The notes: a model not told the origin generated them from the sequence alone. A DNA stretch of 45,285 nt from Nemertoderma westbladi (GCA_032718475.1 JAUCBJ010008379.1:1-45285), one strand, 5' to 3'; positions 5,515 through 37,832 are shown, numbered from the stretch's first letter. Translations and numbers: made by a program.

Positions 5515-6935
5515 TTACAAAGCAATATTGAGAGGGTTACTGAATAGAACGGACATTTGGCGGCAGAAATCCAGGGCAATGAAATCAGGCACATCAGCAT
5601 AGCGCTGCGTGAGGACAGTAATAGCACGATTGATTTTTTCGTATTTCGCATTTCGGCGATTCACCTGCTGTCCTTGTTGAATCTGTTGCAACTCCGTCTC
5701 CACCCGGCCTTGCTCCAGACGAATAAATGAAAGAAACTCATAGGAATTTGGATGATTCTTTGCGATAGCCTTGGTCATAGCAGAATGCCATCCTTCTACA
5801 TTATTGTTTGTGCGCCGTCTGCGGCCATGCATACGTGCATACTCATTGTTTAGCCACTGACCTTCGAAATACTGGAACAGTTGGTCGAATATGATATGGG
5901 CGGAGCAAACTCGATGAGTTGCTGAAAGCCAGCGTCAATGTCTTGTGGTGGCAGAAAGACAACGGTCATCAAGCAGCGAACAACCAAACGAACAGGTACA
6001 TTCTGGTCGGGGTCGGCATATGCGACTGCCAAACCGAGTTCCTGTATCTTACGGTAAATAGCCTGACACATTGGAAGTGGCATCCGCAGATTTGGGAAGC
6101 TGGTAACTCTGCAAGCAGAGCAGGAATAAGTCCAGTTTCAAAGTCAATTGATATTCTCGCTGGATTGAACTGCAGTTGTATTTCTGCTGCAAGATCTTTT
6201 AGAATGCGTAAAATTCTGACGTATGATTTGCGATCCTTGTGCATCATGAGAATGTACACCATCGGCTGGCACCTGTCACCATTAAACGCATGAATAGTGA
6301 ACAGTTGCTGCCACAACTCAGGAACGATTTTAAATGTTCCGTCCATAGCTACATCTGTGGCCGCGCACAAACGACGGAAACACCCATCGGTCATGTAAAT
6401 CACAATATCAGCAGTATCGCTACAGTAGAAAAGGAACTGATGTCCAGAGATTGTGCGTCGAAGCTGGTCAGGGAAGGATTCGGGATCATCGGGAGGTTTG
6501 TTGATCGCAGTTGCAAACTCTTCCAATGTCTGAGGAACGTGAGGAAACTGACTCTTTCTAGCTTTGTACAAACTTGATTCCATGCGACGCAAAGCAGGAA
6601 GCTGCCCAGCAGCCACTGGATTAGCCGATAATACAGCTGCGTTTTCACGGTAAATAGCAGGCATTGGCCGAAAAGTCTTCTTACATTACACATCGCGTAT
6701 TTTCAACTAATCGACGCTCGGGTTGAGGCGCACAGTTTTCGCCGTGCTCACTCCGAATTTCGCGATAATTGTTCTGATCGTCAGTCCACAATCGACCCTT
6801 GCAACCGGTTTGGCGACAACGCCAAGATTTGTTCAATGACACAGGATTCACAGGAGCACTAGGATTGCACAAACGGTATGAATATCCGTTATGCTCGAAA
6901 CACTCCTTTTCTTTGTTAGTTTTGTACGTGGTCAT
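5515..6935 (-). pseudogene. FLYWCH-type MULE transposase, disrupted
   Basis: N-terminal GYSY..WRC..CKGR..H finger; MULE core DGTFK..QLFTIH, IDFETGL, GCHF(H)/MCQAIYRKIQELGL, RTNNNVEGWH; one in-frame stop and at least two frameshifts. Confidence 0.92.
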
Positions 6936-7557: not shown

Positions 7558-10158
7558 TTATACATTAAAGTATTCCCTGATTCGTTGATTTTTAATGGAG
7601 AAGTGTTCTCTTCTGAGGGTGAATTCAGATGTGATGAAGTCAATATGTTGATCTTCAGTGTAACTTGTTGTGCCTTCACAGACGTATTTCATTAGAGACT
7701 TCTTGTTGTACACTGAATTTAAAAGTGAGTTGGTAGATGGAATTGCGTACTCCTGATTTGCTCTGTTATAAGTTCCACCTAGTCCCAAGTAATTGTCTTT
7801 AGAATTATTACAAGATTTCTCAAGGTTAATACGGAGGCAGTATTTGAGGGTGAGGCTATGGCAGTACTTCACTCGCTGGATATGTCTGAGCATACTCTTA
7901 AAAGCTTCGTTTGACAGATTTCCTGTGTTAAAGAGCCCTATTACAGTGCTGTTACTCAAGTACAGTAGTTGCCGACGCATAGTAGTCCCCTCAGATGTTT
8001 TCGGTAGTAAGCATCGAGTGACTTCACTTGGGTATCAGTAAGTGTGCCAATTTGGAAGGTAAGATTATAGAGTAGAGAAGGTAATGCGCATGAGTTCCAA
8101 ATTTTTCTCACGTCCTTTACCTCATGCTTACGCGAAGTCCATCCATTTCTGTGGAAAATCTCCGACAGCAACGTGATTTTGCAGATAACATCATGGTAAG
8201 CTGTAATGGGCTCATGAAATACCTTATAGCCGAGAAATGTGATGCTCCTACTAAAGGGAACAAGATCACCCATCAGGTTAAGGAAGCATGGTATATACTT
8301 GTTACTTCTAGGGGGCTTGCAGTACGTCCATTTAGTTTTATCAGTGGCTATGCCAAGTCCAATTTTTCTGAGTGACTCATTTAGGCGTGCACTCATCATT
8401 TCAATTTCACTGGATAATGTAGATAGATATTAGGAGTATGTCATCTGCATACGAAAGGCAGCCAAGCCATTGATTATTGATGAAGCACCCAAGTTTGATG
8501 CTCTCCATGTCTGTGAAGAGATCTCTTAGGAAGAAGTTGAAGAGGTGTGGTGAGAGGATCGAACCTTGAAGTATTCCAATTGTTACCTTGAACCCATCAG
8601 TGTCAATACATTGACCAAACTTGATGAACATATAGCTATTTGAGTAGTAATGCAGCAACATTCTACAAACATATGGGTTGATTTTATGTCTCAGTTTGTT
8701 GAAAAGTTTGCAATGATTCACCTCATCGAAGGCACTCCGTATGTCCATCTGACACACATATGTTCCTTGGTTTTTCTTTTCATTGTTGTGGATTAACTCA
8801 AGCAATGCTGCTACCACAATATCTGTTCCCAAGCCCTTACGTTAAGCTGTTTGGAGTTCAGCTGGAGCAATGTTGGTTAGGTAGTGTTTCAAAATTATCG
8901 CTTCCATAATTTTGGAGAAGATTACTAATTGTTGACACAGGCCTGAATGATTTTGGGCAGTAAGGATCCTTTCTTGAGCCTTTGTGTATGGTGTTTAATA
9001 ATGTTCTACCAAAAGAGTTAGGAACTTTTCCTAGCAGGAGGGCAGCTTGAATAACATTCCTTAAGCATACCGAAATTACTATTGGATCAAGATTTAAAAG
9101 GTGTTCGATAGTCAATGTGTCAAAATCTGGTGCCTTCCCTCGATTCAGAGAAAAGATCGCGCATTTTACCCACAATTCTGAGATCACCGGGGTACAAGAG
9201 CCATCACATTCATCATCTAGGTCTTTGTTGAGAGTGAGAAGGTCTTGAGTATTTGTGTTATCATTTTCACATCGAAATTTGTTTGAGAAATATGATTTTA
9301 TCCTTTCCTCAGTTGTTGGATCTACTGCTTTCGGAGTATTCTTTTTAGTGCTAAAGAATTTCCAATAGTCTTTTGGTGATGTGTTCTTGTTGCTTGTTGC
9401 CCTCGATACCTGATCCGCTGTCAGTTTGTTTGCCAACCAGTTTCTGAGTCTACGGCTATTCTTTTTGGACTCTTTAAAGGCCTCCCCAAGTGGGTCATAA
9501 GGCGACTTTCCATTACTGCACCATTGTTTATATAGACCTTTTGTTGTTTTGCTCCGAGAGTTGAGCTTCTTGTTTATTATTGTAAGGTTTTTGGTTTTCT
9601 TTCTGATTGTGATTTTCATGATAAACTTTGAAGCTGCTTGCTGAATGGTGTGTGTCACTTTCTCTAGATACACATTCATTTTTTTCTGTCCAGGTAATAG
9701 GGTTATTGCCATACTCTTCCTGGAGTTCTTTGAGATTGGTGTTCACCTCTATTTTATATTTGGATATATTTTCAGCCGATGTTTTGTTCCAATTAAGTAA
9801 CAGTTGTCTCATGGTGCATTTCATTCTCACTGTGGTGTTGCTTATGGCTTCCTCTTTAGGTTGGGTTGCTGGAGCTAAAATAGGATATAATTTAATTGAT
9901 ACTGGGCTGTGGTCTGATCCATTCCTGAGTTCGTCATGGTCATACACCTGACCTTCTGTGCAGAGTCGAAGTCCATTGAGGTTTGTGAGTACATGGTCAA
10001 TATAAGAATTTCCATGGCCCTGGAATGTATGACACCGGGCCATTGCATATTTCTAGGATATCAACAGCTGTAAGTTTGTTATCTGTGAGAAAATTTAATA
10101 GCATTTTACCACGCTTTGTTGGTTGTTGTTGGTGGTTGTTTGTTACAAAATTGAACTG
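7558..10158 (-). pseudogene. Disrupted LINE ORF2 (C-terminal APE endonuclease + reverse transcriptase)
   Basis: APE motifs SYIDHVL and SDHSPV; RT motifs GKAPDFD, FRPVS, DIRSAFDEVNH, GILQGSILSPHLF, SYADDILL, FLGY; split over five ORFs by frameshifts and stops. Confidence 0.93.
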
Positions 10159-13222: not shown

Positions 13223-13524
13223 GTTAGTTACCATCATATTTTTCTGACACACCCACTAAGAACTTCGGGAAAACATCAATATTCCATGTTATTAAATAAT
13301 TAATAAACACTATATTCCAGAATATACAGGTCGTATGTGTTGTGTACACTAGAATATTATATACAAATCAAAAATTAACTCCTATCATATCTATAAACAC
13401 GACATTATTATCGAACATACAGATAACATTTATTGTTGTATAATTTTAAATTATTTTTATCAAGCAGAACCAATTCATAAAAATACGACTTCCTATAAAC
13501 GTTTTAATCATTCTTTTATTGTAG

Positions 13525-13721
13525 GTGTGGATTTTCAGACGAAGACATTGGTTGTTAGTGACCAGGTGATTGCGTTGCAGCTATGGGACACCGCTGGCCA
13601 GGAGCGCTTCCATTGCATTACCAGTCAGTACTTCCGTAAAGCGGATGGCGTGGCAGTTGTTTACGATGTGACAAACACGGCTAGCTATCTCAGAGTTAGA
13701 AACTGGATAACGCAAATAAAG
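13525..13721 (+). CDS. Large Rab GTPase exon (G3, switch II)
   Basis: ttgtag acceptor, AAG|gttagc donor; VDFQTKTL...LQLWDTAGQERFHCITSQYFRKADGV; RKADGV is typical of RASEF/CRACR2A/Rab44. Confidence 0.95.
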
Positions 13722-16225: not shown

Positions 16226-17485
16226 CTAAATAATGGGCCCGTTCCCTTCGTCTGACGACATCACTTTCATTTCTCTGACCCGCTTACCACCGGATTCCGG
16301 CGATGCTATTGGTCCGTCCGTCCCTCCGTCTAGACAACCGCTCTCATCGCCGGGGCAACCGGACTCAGACATGGTACTATAGTCTACCACTTCCTCGTCC
16401 AACAACCGTCGCCTGGCACCGCTGCTCCTACGCGCGTGGTTAATGTGGTCCGCCACGTCCCTACCAACGTCACTGACGTCACACAGCGTCACTATGGCCG
16501 CATACCAAGGAGGCGACTCCACGGTCACGTTGATAAACTCCGTGTAGCTGAAGGCGTAGTGATGCCCGATAGCCGCGATAAACATCTCGATACAGACGAG
16601 GAAGTCCTGTAGACTCGCTGCGACTATCTTAGGATCGAAAACCCAGACCTTCTGTATGACTCCGGTGGCAACGAGGATAGACAAGACAAAAGATTGCCAG
16701 AAGGAGAAGAACACCACAAACTTAATGCAAATAAACTTGCCTATGGGACGGAGTGGGCGGAGTTCGTGTCTGGTGGTCCTGTAGAAGAGAACCAGACAGT
16801 AGAAGGCCCATATCTGGGTGGCGTTGTTAACCAGAGCCAAGTACATCCACGGGGAGTCTGCGGTGAACTCCCCGTCCTTGTAGACACCGGCGGTGACAAG
16901 GATAAGAGAGAGCACCGTAGTGGCGGGTCGCACCACGGTGTACAGCAGCACGCCTTGCTGACAGCGGCGTACGAAAGTGTCCCCCATGGGCCACGCTCGC
17001 AGACAACAGAAAGGGATTAAATGTTTTCTGTTTGCGCTGTAATCTTTGAGACAAGAGTCTAAATCGTATTCGTGGTTCAAATAATTTAACAGAAGCATCA
17101 TAAAGTTATATATTACGTAGGCTTCGTAACACTCGCGACAAGTGTCGAAGTATATCGCTGCGTTAGGGTATCGTAGACCTAGCCAGGCGTCTAGACTATA
17201 TATGGGCACCATCCAAAGGATACGAATTATATGCCGTTGTAGGTATGGCCTCGTGTAGTGGATCAGGTGCTGTAGGATAGTCCACAATGAGATGGGAAGT
17301 GTTAGAGCTAGGAATATTGCTGCGGCTGCCCAGGCCTCTACATGGGAGCTGGCTCCCTGCTCTTGTAGTGTTATAATAAGGAAAGGGAGGCCAACACACA
17401 GACTGATAGCGTAGACGGCCACTACGATAGATCGAATCCACGAGCGCCACAAACCAAATACACCATAACGACTGGTAGAAGGCAT
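16226..17485 (-). CDS. TMEM184C: Transmembrane protein 184C-like (OST-alpha/TMEM184 family), 419 aa, single coding exon
   Basis: Intact ORF with family motifs ILQHLIHYTRPYLQRHIIRILWMVPIYSLDAW, DTCRECYEAYVIYNF, PIGKFICIKFVVFFSFWQ, LQDFLVCIEMFIAAIGHHYAFSY; N-terminal WRSWIR + TM segment is typical of the C paralog. Confidence 0.95.
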   Translation of the reverse strand: MPSTSRYGVFGLWRSWIRSIVVAVYAISLCVGLPFLIITLQEQGASSHVEAWAAAAIFLALTLPISLWTILQHLIHYTRPYLQRHIIRILWMVPIYSLDAWLGLRYPNAAIYFDTCRECYEAYVIYNFMMLLLNYLNHEYDLDSCLKDYSANRKHLIPFCCLRAWPMGDTFVRRCQQGVLLYTVVRPATTVLSLILVTAGVYKDGEFTADSPWMYLALVNNATQIWAFYCLVLFYRTTRHELRPLRPIGKFICIKFVVFFSFWQSFVLSILVATGVIQKVWVFDPKIVAASLQDFLVCIEMFIAAIGHHYAFSYTEFINVTVESPPWYAAIVTLCDVSDVGRDVADHINHARRSSGARRRLLDEEVVDYSTMSESGCPGDESGCLDGGTDGPIASPESGGKRVREMKVMSSDEGNGPII

Positions 17486-17947
17486 ATCTTCTGTCGTGTA
17501 GGCGTAGGCCTACCGCTATCTCACTGCATCGGTTGACAGAAGCGGGAAATAGAACCAGGCGGTTTTAATTCAGTAATCACTGAATCAGGATTACAGATTA
17601 AGTGAGGTTGATGCCTGTGCCTGGCACCTGGGATACCCAACTCAGATACCATTAACACTGTAACAGAAAATAGCTATAAATCTAACAACATTTAAAACAG
17701 AAAAACACCAACCAATCCAGATAGGCCTACCAGTCATCTATCATCTGTCAGTCAGCTGGTCAGTCATCAGTGATCAGGTGATACTGTAATAGTGGCTTAA
17801 ACCTGCTCCATGCTTAAACCAACCAAGGCCTACTAAAACTACTGTTACACTGTAGCAGCAGCACTCTTAAAAAAAAGTCGGTCCATAAGATTTTCAGTCA
17901 GGCAGTCGGCTGCCAGGCCTGTCTTTTAGTTTTTAGTACATAGTACT

Positions 17948-21889: not shown

Positions 21890-22503
21890 TGTGACGGGAT
21901 CCCCGAGTTGGCGAGGGAATCCCGACCGGTGTGTTTGTGTTTTGGAAAGTACGCGTCGCCGCGTCCGCTGGCTGCTGAAAGGCTTGTGGTTTCAGAAAGG
22001 CCGAACGAATAACTGAGTTTTTAGTGGCAGTTGTTCGTAATGTCAGAATACAATAATAGCACAATCAGTTTACAATAATAGCACGGTTAATGACGATGGT
22101 CTAAACCGTCTTGCTTCCACACTCGGTATAAACCAACTAAACGACAGGTAATAAAGACAACGGTTATATTACTAACACATATGGAATATTGCTACCTACT
22201 GTTTGGCCTGGCCAATGAATGCGCATTAATCAGATGGTAAGCTGCCCCACCATTAGCTACTCTGTTCTTAACCCTCTGGCAATCCCTAATCTCTGTGTGC
22301 ACGTGCTAGCTTTCTCACAACCCCCCCCCCCCCCCCCCCCCCCGAGATGGCTTGTAGCCTCTCCTTGTGGCTGGCAGTGTATATTGCCTCCGTTGGTTGG
22401 TAGGTGACATTATATTGGTAATGTCGCCTAGCCAACTATAATTGGTAAAAAGCCACTTTCCCTATTTCCCGCTGGGTGGTGCAGCGAATTGGATCCGCTA
22501 ACA
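21890..22503 (-). repeat. 3' LTR of BEL element 1
   Basis: tgtgacgggatcc...ggatccgctaaca with imperfect terminal inverted repeats; homologous to solo LTR 238-842; abutted by a PPT. Confidence 0.92.
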
Positions 22504-22510
22504 CTCCCCC
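22504..22510 (-). other. Polypurine tract
   Basis: Minus strand GGGGGAG directly before the LTR start TGTTAGCGG. Confidence 0.8.
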
Positions 22511-23262: not shown

Positions 23263-25447
23263 TCATGCTGATACCGTCTTGCCGAGCCCCGTTTTTGGAT
23301 CCTTGGGTGTGGGCGTTATCAATTCACGGTATCGCTTCGCAGGTGGTCCCACTGAGTGCCCCTCCTGCTTCCCTCTGGTAGCGTCCCACAAGATCATCTT
23401 CATCCCACATGGCACATGCTCCGCCAGAAAGTTCCTGAATTCCATCCTGTTCTCTGGTGACCATCTGTCTAGATATTTTTGGGTGTTAATAGCCCCTCTA
23501 TATGATGCCGCTGTCGCTACCTCCTGATATGTGAATGGTAGTCTCCTCTTAGTAATCTCCTGGTGGGCCTGCAGGTTGATGTTGAAAAAAACCCACCAGA
23601 ACTCCTGGGCCTTCATCCTTTGCCTTGTCATGACTCCGACGTTGGCCCAATCCTCGAAAATACAGAACTTCTCCTCATCGTCCATCCAGTCGCACTGGCG
23701 CTCAAAATGCCCCCTAAACTTACACTTGGAACACCTGTGGTGCAACCTTGGGCATGCGCCCATCCTATGGGTAGACTCGTGGCAATATAGACATGTCGCA
23801 CCTTTCTGGTAGCGATACAGACAATTCTTCTGCTGATGGATTAGTCTCCCACAGTAGTCGCAACCATCTATAACTGTCTCTCGCCTCAAGTCGTCCTTGG
23901 CTCCGCGTAGCCTCCTGGGTCTATGGAGCCGCTGATAGGTGAACATTTCAACCCTGTCCTCCCTACCCATGTTGACGTCCTCCTCCCCCCTCAGCATCAT
24001 TTCCCCAAACACTACTTGTGGTGCCGTCCCCAGTTGCTCGCCCAGCCGAATTATGTTCACCAGGAAGTCCGTCGCTTGCTCCCAGGCTCGCTTGCTGGGT
24101 GTGTCCCAGGAGGCTCTCGCCCCGCTGGCTGTCACCACTCTCCCGTCCACCCAGTCCGTGTCCAACCGGTCGATCCTCTCTACCAGCGGCATCTCCCCGA
24201 ACTTGTCCTCCTCTACTTCCTCTGCCACGAACGGCTCCAAACCCGGGATCCCAGTTGATCCACCATGTCCCTTCCCAGCCTGGTACTCGCCCGTAACCTT
24301 CCACTCTTCCATCGCTCTCGGTATCTTCCTTCCAAAGTCGCCCTCAGACCCCCCAGGTATCGGCATTCCCTGCAGTCCAGATGTAGACTGTATCAGTGTC
24401 TCATCCATCCAATCCACCTCATCCCCTTGCCGAAACTCGCCCGAGGTCTCCGATCCCCACCTCAACTCATCCAAGTCTTGGGCTTCAAAATCATACTCCC
24501 CTCCTCTTATATCTGCCTCTCTGCCTGCTGCCTCCCTCCTCTCTTTCCTGGCGACTTCCTCTAGCTTTCTTTCCTCCTCTCTATCCATCTCACATTTCTT
24601 CCATCACCTGTACTGGTGTGTCTACTTCTCCATCCACCAGGTGTCGGGTATCATAATACACAGACTCGTCCTGCTGTCCCGGGTGGTCTACAAGACCTTC
24701 TAGGGCTACCTTAAAGGCTCTCCTGTGGTTCAACCACGACCCATTGCCACGGCTCCGTATTGTCCCATGTTGTCCACCAATCCCAATCCATCCAATTTCA
24801 TCATAGCCATGTAGACTACCTGCATGTCCAGAAGATTTGGGGTGCCTGGTCCAATAATCCTCTCCGCGTCGTCCGTATCGCTGATGCAACCTTGATTGTA
24901 GTCTTCAACCTTACTAGCTTCTGCACCGCATTCGGTAGATGGTTCAACTTCGGCCCGCTCCTCTTACCGTAGGTCCCTAGGTCAAATAGAAAAATATCTC
25001 CGTTCGGCGCCGCTAAATGCAGCAATATAGTTCTACCCGACCCTCCTGACCCCCTCATCTGCCCTTCATCATCCTCTACAGTCCTCTCGTCATCTAGGAC
25101 CATGTATCCGCCCCTCTCCACGGAATCTACAAACCTCCTCCATTCCGTTCTAGGAGTGGTTCCCTCGTGTACTTTGGTATCCCAAAAGTACCCTCGTCCC
25201 CCTTTACAATGTAGTGAAGATGCTCGTTGATCGCATTATCCAACGACGGCATTCCATAGGTCCCGACCAGTCGTCGCTCGTGAATCTCGCTAAACTGATC
25301 TTGCAGCGGGTGCGCTTTCTGACTCTTTGGAAGTCGTTTATAGTATGCCCTCGTCTTATTCTCCAGATGTCTCAGCATGAAATCCACTAGTAATTCCTTC
25401 CCGCTCTTCTCCGACTTCCCCTTCTTCACTAGTTTCTCCACCATCAC
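23263..25447 (-). pseudogene. Accessory ORF of BEL element 1: DEDDy-like 3'-5' exonuclease domain + acidic linker + three CCHC zinc knuckles; frameshifted
   Basis: Joined frames give YMVLDDE..ILLHLAAPNGDIFLFDL..LPNAVQKLV..IKVASAI/DDAERII..NLLDMQ; the open 441-aa part has CDYCGRLIHQQKNC, CLYCHESTHRMGAC, CSKCKFRGHFERQC (each Cx2Cx4Hx4C). Confidence 0.8.
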
Positions 25448-26454
25448 GATTCTCCTCTCTCACCAGACTGGTGGTGCCTTAGAAAGGCTCAGTAGGGCAA
25501 GAGATAACTAAGTATGGTCTTAATTAGTTTAGATCAGTTATGGCCTACCTCCTATCTGCTCTTTTGCCAATGTTTTGTATAAATATTCCCCCTATGTGCC
25601 AATTTTACTCCTAATTCGTAATTTTGTCCATTACTTTTAATAGTGCTTCTAGAATTTTTTAACTCCCAGTTGCTACAATTTTTTGTTTTGTTATTATTTT
25701 ATATTCTTCAACCTATGTGCTATTATTCTACCCTCTACTCAATTATTATATAAGTAATTCATCACTACTTGTCTACAGAAAAGACTAGCTAAAATTTTCT
25801 TATTGTTGTACTACAGTAGCTTCCAACCAGACAGCTTTCTGGCTCTGTAATAATACTCTAAGTCTGTACTACGGGCTATGCGCTACAGTAGTCTAGTTCG
25901 TGCAGCCTACACAGTCTATTCTACTACGCCTACATACCCCCTTCAACTCCTCATGTGGCGCCCTCAGTGCCCACTGTAGTACGTATTACGTACTATTATT
26001 GGTCCAATTGACCCAGCATGTTTGTATTTATTACGTACGTTGGCAAATTGTGCCAATCAGAGGTACGCAATGTATACCCTCCTGATCCCCACTATGGTAC
26101 TATGTTCCCTTCTAATTCTACTGTACATATCTTATACTGATATTGGTCCCATTGACACGGCATTCTCCCGTATGTAAATTATATACATTGGTACATTCGT
26201 ACCCATCCAACGTACGTAATTATAACTACCTATACCTAAATATTATGTATGTTGATACGTCCGTACCCATCAGACATACATAATGCCTACCTAAACTAAT
26301 TATATGTACCTTGGTACACTACTACTCGACTAACTCATGTATCTTACTTTCTTCACATATTATTCTCACTTTTTATTTCTATTATTATCGTGTGGGAAGG
26401 GCGTCTCGCCCTCATTCCCAACCTCAGTCCAATTTATTGGACAACTCAACTTAA

Positions 26455-29400
26455 TTAGGGCGTTCCCTCCAATAGGCAACACTTCCCTACCACCCTCCTG
26501 TAGGTCTTCCTATCTTTTGCCCCAATCTTTCCTCCAATTCTGACCTCCATGGATCTGATCTTTCCATCCTCACTGGGGTAGCATTCGACTACCCTCGCCA
26601 ACCTACAGTGGTTATTGATAATCGTGTCATTGGTCATGATTATCAAGTCACCCTTCCTAAGCTCCCTCTGATTATTCCTCCACTTGCTTCTCTTGTGCAG
26701 CGTTGGTAGGTACTCTTGGATCCACCTTCTCCAATACTCTGCAGAGACTGCACCTATCGCCTTAGCCACCTTCCAGCTCTGACGCGAGTTTATATCGTCT
26801 GGGTTGATATTTCGCATGTCGATCGTCGATAGTCTCTCCATTAATAGATGTGCTGGTGTCAAAACGTCCAGCGATTCTGGATCATCATTCTTGGGATACA
26901 GCGGTCGGCTGTTGATAATCCCCTCACACTTCGCCAGCACTCTCCTGAATACATCCTCGGTCACCATGTGATTGTTCATGAGTTTGGTCATCAGCTGCTT
27001 GGAGCTTCCGACGAGGCGTTCTACGCAGCCCAGCTTATGTGGTGCGTATGGCATCCTCCTTTCCCATTTAATCAGGTGCTTTCTCATCACTGTCTTAATA
27101 TCTCCGCCCTCCAAGATGTCAAAGGCCTCCGCTAACTCGTTTTCTGCACCAATGAAGTTAGTCCCATTGTCGGAGTATAATATTTCGACCGTCCCTCCTC
27201 TGCGGGTCACGAATCTCTCCAAGGCATTGATGAATGCTGACGCCGTAGTGTCCTGAGCCAGTTCTATCCCCACGGCCCTCGTATTATTACAAACGAAGAT
27301 AATGCCGTAACGCTTCTCTGTGTGGCGCATCACTTTGATCTTAATCACCCCAAACATGTCCACGCCACAGTGTGTGAATGGTGCGTCGTGATGCCTCACC
27401 CTGTTAGTTGGCAGTGGAGCCATCTCCTGCACGGCCCTCTCCTTCTTCGTCCGTCAGCATGTCTGGCATTTCCCCACTACCACCTTCACCATCTTACTAA
27501 GTTGAATTACCCAATATCTCCTTCTGATCTCGGTTAAGGTTTGGTTGGTATCGCCATGTAATATGGCCTTATGGGCATCCCATATGATCTGGTGGACTAT
27601 AAGTGACTTATTAGGGATTATTATTGGTTTCTGCGGAATTAAGGCACTGGTGTTATTAACCACCCTGGAGTTCATGACCAGGATTCCATCCTCATCCAGT
27701 TGCAGTGACAGCGCGTTGATCTCGCTGTCCTGATGAAGATGTTGCTGTTTCCTAACCCGGTCTACTTTGTCTCCGTATCCCTTCCCTTGTTCGTATCGTA
27801 TCATGGCTTTAGCCGCCCCTTCCAGATCGATGGTGGGTTTTATCTTACTGGCCGTACCAGCCCTCCTAAGGAATTATCCGTAAGCCCTCAGATATGCCAC
27901 TAGCTTCTTCGTCTTATACCAACTAGAGCTGTAACTGAGCAACCTATCTGTTGGACTATCGCACGACTCTATCATCTTAGATTGTGGTGGTGCCTCCTTA
28001 ATCTCCCTCACTAACTGGCTAAATATTTCTTCCCCCTCCTTCCGATTTCTTCCCTCTACTACTACTTCCTCTCCACTTGGATCTACCTTCCTCATCAGTA
28101 GCCACTTCGACCTGTCGTTGAAGAAGTGTGGACCATGCTGCCACAACTCCTGCTTTCTCGAGAAAGCAGGAGTTGAGTACACCCCTCGATAGCAAGTCTG
28201 CCGGATTGTCGTCAGTTGGGCAGTAGTGCCACTTGTCCAAGTCCATTATTGCTCTTATCTCGTCCACTCGATTCACTACGAATATGGGATAACGCGTCTT
28301 TTCTTTATGCAACCATTCCAATACGCTTCCAGGGATGCATCGGAGAACATATGTAGTTCTAATTCACTCATGTCTCCATCCGGGAAGTACACACGTGGCA
28401 TACTGTAGGTTCCCATATCTTCTAGGCTCCCTGTGTATTTCTCCCACTATTTACTTATCTCTATCGGGACCTCCACGTCCCAATCATCTTTGATCTTGTA
28501 AACCTTCTTAAGTATTTGCTTCCCCGTGACTAATAACAGGGATGCTAATCCTAGTGGATCGTAAATCCTCGCCATGTATGACACATAGCCTCGCTTGGTA
28601 TAGATCCCGGCACACTCCTGACTCAGTTGATATTCCAACTCATCTGTCTACCGGTTCCATACGATCCCTAGTGCATTCTGCTGCGATTCCTACTCTCTTG
28701 TCCACCATAATTTGTTCCTTTACCGTCATAGGTTTATCTAATTTTACCTCCGGTTGTTTATACTCTATGGCTTCCATGAATTATTTAGAGTTTGACTGGA
28801 ACTTCGTCAAGTTGAATCCCGATATCTTCAGGATGACGCAAACTTCGGCCCCATCGCGACGATCTCCTCAATGGAGTTTCCAAAACCCATCCCATCGTCC
28901 ATGTAGAACCAGCGTCGAATCATATTGATCGCCTCTTCGCTATACTCCCCCTCTTTGCCCTCCACTGTTTCTCTTACGGCTGTGGTCATGGGGAATGAGG
29001 ACGACTTGGCTCCCATATTCTGCACCACCATCTTGTACATCAGTATATCTGACGGTTCTTCGTCACTGTTGTACCATAGGACGCGTTGACTTTCGCTATC
29101 CTCCTCAGTTACCTGCACTTGGTTAAACATGCCCTCTATATCGCATGTGAAGGTGTGATTTCCATTCCTAAACCTCAACAGAACTTATATCCCCGAGTTG
29201 TAAATATTGGGGCCTTGTAGTAGGTAATTGTTTAAGCTTTTGCCGTTTGTCTTGGCAGAGGCATTGACCACCATCCTCAGTTTGCCCTTCTTGGGGTCTA
29301 GGGCCACATGAAGTGGCAGATAGTAAGTCCTGTCGGTATCTGGTTCATCTACTGGTAGCTCCACGGCCCTCCCCCTGATCTACATACTTCTTGATGGTCT

Positions 29401-29688
29401 TATGTATGTAGTCGTTCTTCTCCGGACTCCCCCTAAGCGTTTGTTTTAATTTCCGGAGTCTCGTTCGACCATTCTCTTATTATTTGGTAGGGGCACCTTT
29501 GGCTCCTTCCATACCATTCCTATGGTATACCGCCCCCCTTCATACTTCATCGATCTCCTTACTCTCTCCTGCGCCTGCTTGTCCTCTACCGAGGTTCCTA
29601 CCCCTGTCTCATTTAATCCCTCAAAATCCTGCCATAGCAGCCTTTTGAGTTGTTCCTCCGCTCCATTGTCCTTATTCATCTCTCTCAT
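26455..29688 (-). pseudogene. BEL/Pao pol (RT, RNase H, integrase), disrupted
   Basis: RT FTCDIEGMFNQV and FYMDDG; RIYDPLG; RNase H LHMFSDAS; HYCPTDDNPADLLSRG; integrase HxxxxH..CQTC, GVDMFG, YSDNGTNFIGA, ERLVG, INSRPL, WRRWIQEYLPTL; many frameshifts. Confidence 0.96.
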
Positions 29689-30277
29689 CGTTCCTGCGAA
29701 CATGCACCCTGAGGATTCGGACACGCTAAACGGGAAGAAGGAAATGAAATGATTTATTTATATTGAGTAAAAGAAGACGCCATGGATGTTGGACATCAGC
29801 TCTACATTATAGTAAACTTTAGATACAGTAGTAAACTGGAAAACTGTATGTACTGTAATATAGCCTAAATATACGTGTATAATATATATATATAATTTAA
29901 TATTACTGTATATTGTTCTAATGTTATCGCCTATTACTGTGAATTATTTCTGAGAGGGCTTTTTTGGGGTGGGGTATAGTAAAAAAAGAGATGCTTAGTG
30001 TTTTGGGGGAAGATTAAAAATATATTATTATTGATAATTTATATTACCATATGGGTAAATAAAAACATTGAATAAACGGAAAATGCACGAAAGAGAGAAA
30101 GCTCAGTCTATGATTATTGGCGAAGAAGTTACGTGCTGTTATTGTTTTATTGTAATAATTGTTACAATTTGTCAAGGCTTTTACGGGAGGCTGACCTACA
30201 AACGCCACTAAGAGTCTTTCTGTAATTCTTATGAGTGTTATCAAGTGCCTTGTGGTACCTGCCACACAGCAGGAACA
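29689..30277 (-). repeat. Candidate 3' LTR of BEL element 2
   Basis: Inverted ends (c)gttcctgc...gcaggaaca; 589 bp, similar to LTR 1; minus-strand AATAAA near 29755; no second copy in the window and PPT not intact. Confidence 0.45.
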
Positions 30278-32476
30278 CTCACGAAAGTGTGGGGGTATAT
30301 ATATATTATCTAATATATATATCTAACTGGATGTAGAATTAATTACTGTAAGTATAAAGCCTCGGCGCTTACAAACTGCTTCAAAGGGTGTGATAGTTAT
30401 GTGTAAACCGTTCCGTTATGTTGTGTTGTTGGCTAGTAAATGTACATATGACTTATATATATTACAGGTAGGACACTATGTTGACTCAGTGCGTGGTAAG
30501 CGCACAGTTCACTCGTGTTGCTTGCATAATATTAGTAGATGATATTTACTAGTTGGGGAATAATATTGCAGTACTATGGACACACACACTCGCACTAAAT
30601 GAACCGAATCTATTACAGACAGGGCGCAATATGCACTAACCGTGTGGAAATTGAGTTGGTTTGATCTCTGGTCCTGTATATTTATTAACAAAGCAATGCA
30701 ATAATAGTAATAAACAACAAAGCAACAAGTTGCAAGTAACAAGATGTTAAATGAATGCAACAAGGTGAAATACTACGAGTCCAATAATTAACGTGACTCG
30801 TACGGCGGTAAAATTGATGTAAAGGTTACGTCTATAGGAGTAGGATGGACATCGGCTATATAAAGGCACAGTAATGCTTATAAAATAGAACAGCCAATAA
30901 GATGCAATAATGCCGGCTTCGGTAGTTACCAATGAGAATTCAGTAATACCACAACTGCTGCTAGGCAACATATAAACAGATTTATGGAGCTATTCAACAC
31001 GAGTTAGGCATAAATGCTATGCGCACTGAAATTGAATGATAATGTGTTAAAAATATAAGATTTCTGTATGCAGTTAGCCCGTGCAGCAACACCATTTCCT
31101 AAAATCACGTAGAAGTTCATAACACAATGTGTTAAATAACACAATATTGAGTTTTTTCTGAAATTTACATTGGAAAGGGTATATACAATCTTGCAACAAT
31201 CAAAGGTTACGTCGATATCAAATACTCGCTACATACAGTTGAATGTGATAAACAATCTAACTAAATTAAACAAAATTAATTAAGGGTAGGTCAACTCCCT
31301 CATATAAAACAATAAAGTTCGTTGAGTCACTTCCGGTAAGACTAAATAAGTATTAAACAACCTTTCAAACAGTATTAGAGTTGGATATATTTACAAATAT
31401 GGTAGGTCAGTAAATTAATCGACGTAAGTAGGTAAATATTGAGTAATATTATCCTTCAAATATAAAAATACATAAATTCAACCAATATATTGAGTTTCAA
31501 TCTTACGGTAAGAAATACATATCGTTCATTGTTTACAAATATAATAGTTTTACGGCGTACTTAATCGTTGGCAAATGAGTATAGGGATTTTATAAAGTTT
31601 GACAGGCTAACTAATAGTAATCTAATATTATCGCTTTCGTTTGGGGTGTTTGGGAGTATTGCGCATAAAGAGTCGTTTCCTCTTCTTTGCGGGCGTCTGG
31701 GGCGCGGGTAACGCTAGGTCGTCGCTCGAAAGCGTTTCGTCGGGACCCGGGTGTATATCTACCGCATCAGGTATTGGCAAACTCGGACGATCGGTGTACG
31801 TTCCAGTAGAGGTGCCGGGCAAGGACAGGAACTCAGCCAGTTTCGTTGCGCACGAGTCGACAACCGGTCAACGGATCTCCAGCTCCGGAGGGGCAGCTAA
31901 GCGCTTCCGCACAGCGGCCTGTACTGGTCCGGAGGGGATGGTTTGAGTAGTGATACCAAACTAGGACTGCTGGCCGAGGAAAATTCTCGGAGGCACAGCA
32001 TGGGGAACTGGTCCTTCACGATGAACGTGTTCACAGAAAACTCGATGCTGTGGGAGCAGCTCGGGATGTCTCTCCAGGAACTGGGAACCATAGAATGGGG
32101 AGTCTTTAATGAATTTTATTATATCATAGGACGTCGCGTGCTCCGGATGTATTTCACGAAGAAAGCATCGGACGAAACAGGTATTGGTGCAGGAAGCTAC
32201 ACAGTTGAGGAGCTCGTAGCTCGGTAGCCAAGCACGTCGAACATCGGTGGCGCAGGTAAGGGGGCAACTGTGTACACTCCGAGATGAGCTTTCGCTGCGG
32301 CGTTTCGGGACATAGCGATCGCGTTGAGGTCTGCGCATCCTTCCCATGACTGGATGTATCGTGTAACGCTTGGCTCGTCTTCTATTTCTATGTCATGGCC
32401 GAAGGGGCAGTTTGAACTACTGTGTCCCTTGAGCTTGTCCCCCCTCGCACTGGGTGGCAAAGACTATACATGAGAA

Positions 32477-34120
32477 TTACCAGCCGATCGCCTCAATGGT
32501 TGGAAAGCCCACTTTGAAAAGCTCCTCAATAATGACAGGGTATTGCCTGATAACTTTATAGAAGTAAAAGTGTCTGAGTCTGTACTCCCAGATATTCCCA
32601 TTGGCGATATCTCCTTTGCAGAAGTGAAGACTGCTGCAAAGAGCATTAAGACCAATCGTGCCAGTGGAGTAGATGGTGTTCCCCCTGAGGTCTTTAAAAT
32701 ACCCGAGTGTTTAAAGCTCATCTATCCCATCATAGTAGAAATGTACCGAACAACAAGAGTCCCACAAGAAATGAAAACAAATAAGTTGGTGCCTGTTCCC
32801 AAGAAGGGCAACCTAACACTCTATGGTTCTTTTCGGGGAATCTCATTGATCTCGATTGCTGCAAAGCTATACAATAGGATTCTATTAAATCGCATCAGGG
32901 ATCCCATTGAGAGACTGCTCCGTGGAAATCAGAATGGGTTCCGTAAAGGTCGTGGGACCATGGAGCCCATTTTGGCACTTAGAAGGATAATTGAAGAGTT
33001 ATCAAAAAAGAAAGACAGGCATCTGGCTGTTATCTTTGTTGACTTCTTCAAGGCCTTTGATTCAGTCTCTCGCTCACGTATGTTCAGCATACTTTCATTA
33101 TATGGGATTCCTGATGAAATTATTGCAGCAATCAGATCAGTATACGATGGTTCGACAACATTTGTGTCTACTGTTGATGGTGACACAGAACCATTTGAAG
33201 TGTTATGGGGCGTCCTCCAAGGAGACACACTTGCACCATTCTTGTTCATTATTGTGGTTGACTATGTTCTACGCATGTCCTTAGATCATTATAATGATGA
33301 TGGGGTGATGATAACTCCACCTACTGGCTCCAGAAGTCGAGGAAATCCTGCCAAGTACCTAACTTATCTAGACTTTGCTGATGACTTAGGAGTACTCTCA
33401 GAATCATTAGAGGGAGCCCAACGGCTCCTCAGCTCATTAGAACATGCTGCTTCTAGTGTTGGTCTTTTTATTAACTCCAGAAAGACCAAAATTCTGACAG
33501 TTAACTTTGAAAGTCCTCAGCAAGTCTCTGATCGGATGAGCATAAGCTCAAAGGATGGTATGCTTGAGCATGTGGACGACTTCTGTTACCTGGGATCATG
33601 GATCCGGAAGTCAGGTGAGGACCTTCGAATACGTAAGGGAAAGGCATGGGCAGCCTTGAATAGGCTTTCCAGGATTTGGAAGTCACCGAGAATTAATCGG
33701 AAACTTAAGGTCCGATTATTTAGAGCAGCAGTAGTTCCAGTACTCCTCTACGGGAGTCCATGCTGGGCTCTAACTGCTGAGGACACCAAATCTCTGGATG
33801 GCACATTCACAAGAATGCTACGCCGGGTTCATTGTGTCAAGTACAATGCACACTTCTCCAACCAGACACTATATAACATTGGAGGTGTCTCATTGGTTCC
33901 CCCAAGCTTGACACTAGAACAAAATCGCCTCCGCTTTGCAGGACATTGCTTTCGCCGTGAGGACCAGCCAGTGCATAATCTTGTACTTTGGCAGCCTCAT
34001 GGAGTGAATAAGCATGGTGGACAGCCCATGACTTTCTTGAGACGCATCTTAAAGGACACTGGCCTTAAAGATGCGGATGATCTAGCAAATGTCATGGGTG
34101 ATAGGGAGTTGTGGCGGTGA
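32477..34120 (+). CDS. RTE reverse transcriptase (5'-truncated, frame intact)
   Basis: ASGVDGVPPE, PKKGNL..FRGISL, QNGFRKGR, FVDFFKAFDSV, GVLQGDTLAPFLF, LDFADD, FCYLGS, RLRFAGHCFR; frame open from the insertion boundary. Confidence 0.93.
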   Translation, partial: LPADRLNGWKAHFEKLLNNDRVLPDNFIEVKVSESVLPDIPIGDISFAEVKTAAKSIKTNRASGVDGVPPEVFKIPECLKLIYPIIVEMYRTTRVPQEMKTNKLVPVPKKGNLTLYGSFRGISLISIAAKLYNRILLNRIRDPIERLLRGNQNGFRKGRGTMEPILALRRIIEELSKKKDRHLAVIFVDFFKAFDSVSRSRMFSILSLYGIPDEIIAAIRSVYDGSTTFVSTVDGDTEPFEVLWGVLQGDTLAPFLFIIVVDYVLRMSLDHYNDDGVMITPPTGSRSRGNPAKYLTYLDFADDLGVLSESLEGAQRLLSSLEHAASSVGLFINSRKTKILTVNFESPQQVSDRMSISSKDGMLEHVDDFCYLGSWIRKSGEDLRIRKGKAWAALNRLSRIWKSPRINRKLKVRLFRAAVVPVLLYGSPCWALTAEDTKSLDGTFTRMLRRVHCVKYNAHFSNQTLYNIGGVSLVPPSLTLEQNRLRFAGHCFRREDQPVHNLVLWQPHGVNKHGGQPMTFLRRILKDTGLKDADDLANVMGDRELWR

Positions 34121-35380: not shown

Positions 35381-35540
35381 GGTTGTGTACAAAACACAGA
35401 CCCAAGACCCCAGACCCCCAGGTACAAAACACAAACCCCCAGGTACAAAACACAGACCCCCCCCCCCCCCCAGGTACAAAACACAGACCCCCCCCCCAGG
35501 TACAAAACACAGACACCCCCAGGTACAAAACACAGACCAC

Positions 35541-35679
35541 AGACGAAAATTTCATAGATTGTTAAAAAACGAAACGAAACGAATATTTGATCATAATGGT
35601 AAAAACAAAACGAAACTAAATTAATGAAAACGAAACGAAATTGAAATGTCTTTCGTTTCGTTTCGTTATGCCATCCCTA
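35541..35679. repeat. End fragment of a hAT-like MITE
   Basis: Reverse complement begins tagggatggcataacgaaacgaaacg; repeated aacgaa subterminal motifs; other end absent. Confidence 0.5.
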
Positions 35680-35681
35680 CC

Positions 35682-36181
35682 TTAGGTTGGAATTGGAATG
35701 TCAATATCGAATTCGTTCTTAAGTTAAAAGACATGTGAAGCAGCCAATCGGGGATGCAGTTCTTCACCTTCCTGCAGGAGTGATAACTGATCACTGACGT
35801 ATGGAAATCGCTTAAATATGCAGTCCCACCTTACGCAGTAAAACTTCTTAGTAAGTTTGTTCGATGGTATGTTAGTAGAGGGAATCGATGGATGGGGATC
35901 ACATCCATCTTTCAAAGTGATCAGAACACTATATCATATGGCCGAATGAGCTGCCGCCGTGGAAAGTTTAGTTTACATTGTTGACAATGAAGGGCTGATG
36001 GTTCATCAGTTAGGAAACACAATGTAATGGGCAAGTCATTATGATAGACTTCAGTAAATGGACGCCCTGGCAATGACTGTATATCATCTGTGCTACTACC
36101 ACTTGGTGGAATAGCATTTACTGACTGTGGTCTCCAAGCCGTCTTATGTCGACCTCCCTTTTTCCCAGCAGCGGGAGGACC
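35682..36181 (-). pseudogene. Cys/His-rich ORF remnant, probably the C-terminus of the foldback element's protein
   Basis: Manual translation across frameshifts: AGKKGG..LHCQQCKLNFPRR..PYDIVF/HFERWM/..KKFYCVRWDCIFKRFPY..RLAASHV*LKNEF. Confidence 0.55.
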
Positions 36182-37832
36182 GCTGCTGGGTACCTGGGGG
36201 GGGGGGGGGGGTCTGTGTTTTGTACCTGGGGGGGGGGGGGTCTGTGTTTTGTACCTGGGGGGGGGGGTCTGTGTTTTGTACCTGGGGGGGTCTGTGTTTT
36301 GTACCTGGGGGGGGGGGTCTGTGTTTTGTACCTGGGGGGGTCTGTGTTTTGTACCTGGGGGTCAGGGGTCCTGGGTCTGTGTTTTGTACACAACCCATGG
36401 CGATATACTACAGTACAGTTATGTGTTACAAAATAAATTGAACTGCAGTATTTGACTATATTGCTTCCATAGTTACTGTTACTGCTATTCAAATTAATGC
36501 ATTCTTCAACTCCTGATGCTGCCTTAGTCTGTGTTAAATAATTTAATGTTCTCGAATATTTATTACATAACTAGAGAACCACTTAACTACATAAACCAAT
36601 ATTGGATATTGAGTTCCGTTTTGGAGTTCGCCACGCAGACACTAAAGTTGCAATAACTTTTGAGTGTGTTAATGGATTTTGCTCAAATGACTTTCAAACC
36701 TTTTCTACGTTGATGCTCTTTTACCACATGTAATAAAATTTAAAAAATGTCACCAAAAATATTTTACTTTTGTTAAAATCAATGCATTCCTATTGATTAC
36801 TAACTCCGTACGGCCACATTAACTATCAGTTTATGTAGATAGAAGGCCAATATATCATTTCGATTTGTAATTTTTCTTATGAAGTAAGTTTGGTGATTGT
36901 CTTATATACTTTTTAATTTACTTTCCAATAACAGTTTATAAGAGGTCCCTTCTACGTTTTGGACACTTTTTTTGGATCGAGTAATCCTTTTGGATTGCTC
37001 GGTTGCGTAGTTCGTTTTCTTCCAGGCCCGGATAGATAGATAGAGCACATAAACGACTCGATTACAAAAAGTCATCAAATTATTATTATTATTATAATGA
37101 ATTTATTGGTATAATATATTATAAACACTAAACTAAAGCTGTACACAATATTAGCTACTGATTATAGAAGCACAGAACAGGCACGTGGCACGAATACTAA
37201 ACAACCACGATAGACAATACGATTATATCGAAAAACAGAAGCTGTAAAACTAATGTAACAGCAGCGGGTCGGGATTAGGTTGAGAGATCACCCAAAAAAA
37301 TGTTTCACTAAAGGAAATTTCAGGAAAAGTATTGATTAATTTACCAGTAATTTCTTGTTCTAGAAGAATAGAGAGGGCAGTTGAATATGGCATACATTTT
37401 ATTCGATAGTGATTTAACTGAACTTGCAGCGAATTATTACGCTTAAAATTGAATTTTAGTGCGCATAAAATAATTATTACACGCAAAAGTAATTATTACG
37501 CGCAAAAATAATTATTACTCGCAAAAATAATTATTACTCGCAAAATTAAAACGTAACAAGAGTGAGCGTTCTCTCAAACAAACAGTGTAAAGCTGCTTTA
37601 CTTTGCAGGTATCTTTATAAGGCTTGTATGTTGTATGATAGTTATCATATGTAGATATCACTTCCAAAGGAATACAAACAATAAAATATTGGGGGAAGGT
37701 TAAAACAGTCAGACAGTCGCTGCAAAGAATCAACTCTAAAGAATTAAAATGGACCAAAATGAGTAAAATTGCAGAGAATTTAGAGAACAAGCCAGTATAA
37801 TTTCATAATATTTCACAATCTTGAATAAGTAA

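Follow-up and report, generated by a model that had tools for sequence, protein, structure and literature searches.

The LTR retrotransposons Juno, Vesta, TelKA and Mag are of the Ty3/gypsy type, and the third genes of BEL/Pao retrotransposons have, to our knowledge, been assumed to be envelopes. In bdelloid rotifers, Juno, Vesta and the Athena/Terminon elements carry an ORF3 coding for a DEDDy exonuclease, as set out in the available part of Rodriguez, Kenefick and Arkhipova (2017; PMC5408684), and the precedent that the original prediction for the present locus had named, extra DEDDy genes in bdelloid LTR retrotransposons, is thus borne out. No BEL/Pao element with an exonuclease gene was found in the open literature, the word exonuclease being absent from the available main text of PMC3118150, PMC13524379 and PMC2774666; Repbase, Dfam, GyDB and subscription journals may already annotate such elements. 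Two further systems are described, in the available parts of the respective papers: EXD2, whose action on DNA and RNA varies with the metal and which crystallises as a swapped dimer (PMC6648332), and the soybean Copia element SIRE1, which has an in-frame stop between pol and an env-like gene (PMC2194720).

The locus analysed here lies in a 45,285-nt stretch of DNA from Nemertoderma westbladi (GCA_032718475.1 JAUCBJ010008379.1:1-45285), referred to below as the window. Read 5' to 3', its minus strand holds a pol remnant (29733-26455), a 1007-nt spacer, ORF3 (25444-23263), a 760-nt 3' region, a polypurine tract (PPT) and a 3' LTR, with the following features:

26455-29733, minus strand: BEL/Pao pol remnant, truncated at its 5' end and interrupted by stops and frameshifts (reverse transcriptase, RNase H region, H2C2, integrase, DUF5641)
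25448-26454, minus strand: non-coding spacer from the pol stop (TAA) to ORF3, 1007 nt, 38% GC, 28-32 stops per frame
23263-25444, minus strand: ORF3, in five pieces with breaks at about 25150, 24880, 24735 and 24600
24738-25151, minus strand: N-terminal part of the EXD2-like DEDDy domain, with ExoI D-x-E at 25094-25086, the ExoII region at 24873-24853 and LD at 24831-24826
24732-24738, minus strand: site of a loss of ~220 nt relative to other copies, most likely including ExoIII
23900-24603, minus strand: acidic low-complexity linker, read from the sequence; its counterpart in the relative P0018 has a pLDDT under 50
23344-23900, minus strand: triple CCHC zinc-knuckle region (23862-23692) followed by a conserved helical block, detected with a profile of 87 relatives (E=1.1e-19)
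22504-22510, minus strand: PPT, read from the sequence
21890-22503, minus strand: 3' LTR, TGT..ACA, 614 nt, read from the sequence

Pfam matched the pol remnant with RVT_1 (weakly), H2C2, rve and DUF5641 (E=8.6e-21), and the remnant, whose integrase frame stops with TAA at 26457-26455, aligned in order to the intact relatives described below, in the PR-RT-RH-IN arrangement of BEL/Pao. The 5' LTR and gag of the element are absent from the window, and beyond 29733 the summed depth of contigs drops from thousands to 11-15. As in Belpaoviridae, whose LTRs measure 0.2-1.2 kb with a PPT before the 3' LTR, the window has a PPT next to a 0.6-kb LTR with TG..CA ends, and a 5-bp target duplication flanks a related solo LTR; the domain set also resembles that of Belpaoviridae/Semotivirus (Gag-PR-RT-RH-IN, Peptidase_A17, DUF1759, DUF5641, PPT; PMC8742986). 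The element is almost certainly a decayed copy, truncated at its 5' end, from an old lineage of BEL/Pao elements in which ORF3 joins a DEDDy domain related to EXD2 to a triple zinc-knuckle domain by way of a flexible linker.

Several other features were observed in the window. The solo LTR, of a related family, lies at 842-238 on the minus strand and is 73% identical to the 3' LTR by blastn. An apparent second, internally deleted BEL element occupies 35380-34700 and 34657-34212 / 32464-32200 on the minus strand, where it is split by a LINE; it shows gag knuckles and a protease followed by a diverged knuckle domain (10.1 bits; maximum of 40 shuffles 0.6), and no nuclease signal. The LINE reverse transcriptase (32474-34120, plus strand) is open for 548 codons and bounded by an 11-nt target duplication (34212-34202 / 32475-32465). 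A single-exon host gene with Solute_trans_a (TMEM184-type) at 16226-17509 on the minus strand apparently sits within an intron of a Ras-family gene that has an exon near 13500-13720 on the plus strand. Remnants of a MULE transposase and of a second LINE, and an inverted-repeat element by which the gag piece is cut off, were located at 5515-6685 and 7558-10052 (minus strand) and 35381-36395.

The first ATG of ORF3 is at 25444 (25447 being a GTG codon) and its stop at 23265-23263. The ExoI acids are D at 25094-25092 and E at 25088-25086, DDAERII follows at 24873-24853 in another frame, and the three Cx2Cx4Hx4C knuckles occupy 23862-23821, 23793-23752 and 23733-23692, all on the minus strand. Every motif quoted in the original prediction, from the integrase stop through ExoI, DDAERII, LD and the knuckles to the PPT and 3' LTR, was recovered at its minus-strand place, and the same-strand frame that it had described as broken by a few frameshifts resolved into pieces separated by four located breaks, the third being the ~220-nt loss. 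Its reading of ORF3 as having no signal peptide or transmembrane anchor agrees with the hydropathy profile, neither being evident because no 19-residue window in any of the five pieces rises above a Kyte-Doolittle value of 1.09. Pfam gave no match on the four ORF3 pieces of the window searched.

The prediction had also failed to find ExoIII (YxxxD) and suspected a deletion there; the first point held and the second is supported. No YxxxD occurs in the ORF3 pieces remaining after the third break, and a degenerate ExoIII surviving past that break was rejected, the profile gaining nothing over shuffles (28.2; shuffles 28.3). In contigs carrying the same organism label (three runs of two samples, one possibly the window's own source), 226 letters stand against 5 in the window copy at 24732-24738 in two contigs each of runs X1 and X3; among the contig rows listed, gaps also occur at the first and fourth breaks and none at the second. 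In 74 relatives the distance from LD to the ExoIII acid is 57-110 residues (median 88). Since the window copy keeps 30 codons before the loss, fewer than this distance, and ~220 nt are missing there, ExoIII most likely lay in the stretch lost at the third break, and the ORF3 of this copy is predicted from its sequence to be inactive.

To test the pairing of the two domains independently, a protein search was made with the knuckle half only (24186-23344) against 1.84 billion representatives, which gave 65 matches at E<=0.001; 24 long matches were examined, and the N-terminal regions of 21 were cut by eye and made into a profile. Among 1920 stop-free pieces this profile picked the window piece 25235-24816 with E=1.7e-6, the next having E=8.8, and the pairing of the two domains is therefore beyond chance, as a profile from relatives found by their knuckles picks the window's nuclease piece. 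Addition of the ExoII/LD piece raised the score by 7.5 bits, to 29.3 vs 21.8 (30 shuffles: mean 21.2, maximum 22.9; X at breaks). A profile of 24 domains with intact or near-intact ExoI matched EXD2 at E=2.9e-17 and WRN at 1e-3, with ExoI, II and III in register, making EXD2 the best profile match by 14 orders of magnitude. A phmmer search of PDB sequences with the window's nuclease piece gave no match, nor did word-index searches with window pieces or a search of a viral contig collection; the knuckle alignment found three unnamed proteins in the word index. An Atlas feature search with the nuclease piece put on top a cluster in which Rotifera is the most frequent phylum (score 0.94, PF01612 on 17% of its members), which serves as a lead only. 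One apparent relative with a repeated knuckle, P0002, was discarded as a spurious match.

The fold was examined on the predicted model of a natural relative, P0018 (727 residues), with a mean pLDDT of 66.7 and values mostly of 85-95 in both domains. The model has a DnaQ-like fold and matches Nibbler EXO (Z 16.5, rmsd 3.0, 204 aligned), WRN (14.4), RNase D and Rrp6 (14.3), and Foldseek placed EXD2 first by E-value; the window's own piece is linked to this DEDDy fold through the profile. The lower structural rank of EXD2 may be due to its swapped dimer. The domain thus shares its fold and ExoI/II/III motifs with EXD2, and also with WRN, Nibbler/MUT-7, Rrp6 and Egalitarian, and on the combined profile and fold ranking is best termed EXD2-like rather than EXD2 proper. 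Unlike EXD2, it shows no N-terminal membrane anchor, is borne by a retrotransposon and is fused to a zinc domain that has no library match.

That zinc domain consists of three Cys/His modules and a helical block, and its model is confident over the knuckles (pLDDT 81-93). It found no match in Pfam, PDB sequences or the Atlas, and a fold search gave a best Z of 5.0, to the helical tail only, with no viral fold at E<=0.001; the absence of a library match does not make it a new fold. The conserved knuckle motif, written as a DNA pattern that matched once in the window and never in 100 shuffles, was used to gather 120 metagenome loci out of ~250 estimated in the collection. As the loci were picked by a knuckle pattern, the invariance of the motif is by construction; in 88 of 105 loci the second module takes the form Cx4Cx4-6Hx4C, but in the window it is canonical. 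Eighty loci have flanks, and the other 40 (L081-L120, with 300-nt flanks only) were excluded from the context counts.

Where 4 kb or more of upstream sequence is available, the nuclease domain is present in 34 of 37 loci and a same-strand gag-pol lies upstream in 34 of 37; where it is 6 kb or more, gag-pol is found in 28/29. Peptidase_A17 scored above the cut-off in 15 of 19 upstream ORFs, the other four being partial pieces, and many relatives have a gag-pol that runs without interruption over 2000-2380 codons and, after it, an intact ORF3, which as a single ORF spans about 510-1590 codons. One of them (L072) has both LTRs (775 nt, 96% identical). Env-like features (signal peptide, anchor, fusogen fold) were not found, with any hydropathy window of at least 1.8 in 8 of 88 relatives and the fold being that of a nuclease. 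Pfam reported PF01612 for the ORF3s of 2/30 intact relatives, and annotation pipelines would therefore miss the gene. Under the same organism label the 751-nt nuclease stretch is covered by 512-674 contigs per run, mostly 80-95% alike (three runs, two samples), and ORF3 and pol have contig depths of similar magnitude, which is not a copy number. ORF3 is thus a real, conserved and lineage-wide cargo of BEL/Pao elements and not a one-off insertion, a concern raised in the prediction that the other copies settle; profile, fold and genomic context of the relatives together uphold its main proposal of a DEDDy nuclease with a triple knuckle in the env position. The cargo is apparently undescribed for BEL/Pao.

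Before gag, 13 of the 15 relatives examined carry TGGCGCCC(A/G)AC, and the TGGCGCCC- and TGGCGCCCAAC-type motifs in this place form a candidate tRNA-Lys primer site. Motifs of the TGGCGCCC type were seen 5' of gag in L024, L026, L030, L031, L041, L046, L053, L056, L057, L059, L075, L077, L080 and L072. The ICTV profile lists tRNA-Arg or Gly (PMC8742986), whereas the relatives have TGGCGCCC(A/G)AC. As a further difference, the third gene of env-carrying BEL/Pao elements is an env-like glycoprotein (PMC8742986, and the available parts of PMC3118150 and PMC13524379), and here it is a nuclease-knuckle protein. The likeness to the bdelloid ORF3 lies in a DEDDy 3'-5' exonuclease gene placed downstream of pol, replacing env and lacking a membrane anchor; the available part of PMC5408684 names Juno, Vesta, TelKA and Mag but no BEL/Pao element, and describes no fused triple-knuckle domain, dead clade or readthrough for the bdelloid ORF3, the first two of which were found here together with candidate readthrough.

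The relatives also vary in build. P0001 has two copies of the knuckle domain, and the ORF3s of L004, L044, L037 and P0001 have N-terminal low-complexity extensions of ~900 residues before the nuclease domain. L017:5172-10916 has terminal repeats, a gag piece, pol scraps only and ORF3, and is likely a non-autonomous derivative that keeps ORF3. Opposite-strand frames of 380-544 codons lie over ORF3 in L002, L013, L028, L031, L036, L053, L056, L057, L059 and L004. In several pairs pS is lower in ORF3 than in the integrase, which base composition or overlapping constraint may explain.

The cargo has descended with the element. In a comparison of 30 elements, the nuclease tree reproduced 15 of the 18 strong splits of the integrase tree (Mantel rho 0.85) and the knuckle tree 12 of the 18 (rho 0.78), with 0/999 permutations as high in either case; the window integrase forms a long, unplaced branch with 32% identity at best in a tree without outgroup. 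The comparison of substitution rates proposed with the prediction was run on the metagenome relatives, the contig variants of the same organism being kept out of it as mixed with the window copy's own decay. On protein-guided alignments pN was below pS in 22/22 nuclease and 23/23 knuckle pairs, and dN/dS was 0.11-0.53 for the nuclease (16 unsaturated pairs) vs 0.06-0.10 for the integrase (5 pairs). As the linker likewise has pN<pS and the alignments are protein-guided, these values speak for coding constraint only and not for function.

Of the 88 natural ORFs with 450 residues or more, 76 had the nuclease domain. All four catalytic acids were found in 37/76 domains, or 31 of 62 scorable ones after dereplication at 90%, and in these 31 the ExoIII aromatic position is Y (24), H (6) or F (1). 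The ExoII acid is D in 39/76 and E in 8/76, whereas the bdelloid motif is DEED in the available part of PMC5408684. Six relatives (L009, L038, L064, L065, L070 and L076) keep four intact acids with HxxxD for ExoIII, that is, DEDDy spacing with a DEDDh residue. On the integrase tree one clade (100/100) takes in all 13 of the altered members together with two broken ORFs, and nuclease dN/dS in pairs that lost catalytic acids is 0.19-0.51 (7 pairs). In a second strongly supported clade (L042, L050, L067) the zinc domain is kept and the nuclease domain is undetectable; the ORF3s of these three and of L052 combine the triple-knuckle domain with other N- and C-terminal regions. Cutting therefore appears dispensable, 31/62 having lost at least one catalytic acid and one clade keeping the zinc domain without the nuclease.

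The reading that we favour, at a probability of about 0.45, is that the ORF3 protein binds and trims RNA 3' ends and so blunts host small-RNA silencing of the element. The original prediction had suggested trimming or antagonism of host small RNAs or, alternatively, processing of element RNA or cDNA. It is preferred because the zinc domain is universal (in part through the selection of loci), the fold is kept when dead and ORF3 evolves faster than the integrase, which would fit a host-facing protein; a fold under selection where the catalytic acids are gone points to RNA binding as the shared job. The zinc domain, judging from knuckle chemistry, would bind RNA, and intact members, by analogy with DEDDy chemistry, would hydrolyse 3' ends with two metal ions, the likely substrates being small-RNA guides or sliced element RNA that feeds piRNA/siRNA amplification. 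In altered members these ends would be bound but left uncut. A cellular DEDDy enzyme, Nibbler, trims piRNA 3' ends (available part of PMC11347159); against a role in silencing, EXD2, the nearest cellular relative in sequence, is no known small-RNA enzyme.

Among the 40 loci whose pol end is readable, 16 have a UGA stop with C as the next base, and 11 of these 16 keep ORF3 in the pol frame, open over the 125-242 codons that lead to the nuclease domain, vs 1/24 of the others (Fisher p=2e-5, for loci that are not independent and mostly of one clade). The 11 open-frame loci (L006, L024, L026, L029, L056, L059, L063, L066, L068, L075 and L077) hold a candidate Pol-ORF3 fusion; in the other five the frame to ORF3 is closed. 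Three UGA-C loci read UGA CAA UUA, which we presume to be a readthrough signal of the tobacco mosaic type. A consistent stem-loop was not found after the UGA-C stops (z below -3 in 3/16), and the stop-to-nuclease stretch shows little conservation; a Met close to where the domain begins is conserved. On these sequence features, programmed readthrough in the UGA-C clade is moderately likely. An in-frame stop between pol and the third gene recalls SIRE1; unlike SIRE1, the element is BEL/Pao, the stop is UGA, the cargo has a nuclease fold and readthrough is deduced, and the window copy has TAA and a 1-kb spacer. Because of this TAA, the stop-rich spacer and its own ATG, the ORF3 of the window would be expressed separately; elements of the window type would thus make it from its own message, and the UGA-C clade likely also as a Pol readthrough extension.

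Pol readthrough would put the protein into the particle, which fits a particle-borne helper of replication at least as well as a protein against silencing. In such a helper the knuckles would act much as a second nucleocapsid and pack the protein with genomic RNA, and the EXD2-like domain would trim 3' ends of RNA, RNA:DNA hybrids or cDNA at reverse transcription or before integration. The 11/16 UGA-C loci whose in-frame ORF3 would fuse to Pol, the long co-descent of ORF3 with pol and the cutting of both DNA and RNA by EXD2 according to the metal (available part of PMC6648332) agree with it. However, UGA-C occurs in 12/14 altered-site loci vs 2/18 intact ones, so that the likeliest packaged form mostly could not cut, and the genes described for BEL/Pao elements are gag, pol and no more than an env besides (PMC8742986), so that replication goes without ORF3. 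We regard a helper of this kind as possible, if on the unlikely side.

The clade of 15 elements with altered or unscored sites (100/100), which keeps the fold under purifying selection, together with Egalitarian (Z 13.2) and EXD1 (Z 12.6) among the structural matches of the P0018 model, would suit an RNA-localising adaptor, an RNA-binding module as in those two proteins that carries element RNA to the germline site of transposition and in which catalysis is a relic. A relic, however, would not keep four acids in 31/62 members, and intact active sites span integrases only about 30% identical; an adaptor is quite improbable. A neutral passenger, be it a captured piece of a host gene without benefit or a one-off insertion in the window copy, would agree with the four breaks of that copy and with the single locus among 29 with at least 6 kb upstream that shows no pol, but it is contradicted by the intact ORFs that dozens of diverged elements keep, by the congruence of the trees, by pN<pS and by the hundreds of variant contigs covering the region under the same organism label, and hardly merits consideration.

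Returning to the 3'-end binder or trimmer, its fullest version is one that we hold as doubtful. An ancient, abundant and undescribed branch of Belpaoviridae would have captured an EXD2-type nuclease and joined it to a zinc domain without known fold to serve as a counter-silencing protein, and one sub-branch would make it, by programmed UGA readthrough, as a pseudo-nuclease tail of Pol that travels in the particle and shields element RNA in the next round.

We know of few animal retrotransposons with a protein known to act against host silencing. The knuckle domain, being without library match, is a target for structure determination, and the lineage itself provides a natural series of members whose nuclease is intact, naturally dead or missing altogether, and apparently two routes of expression.
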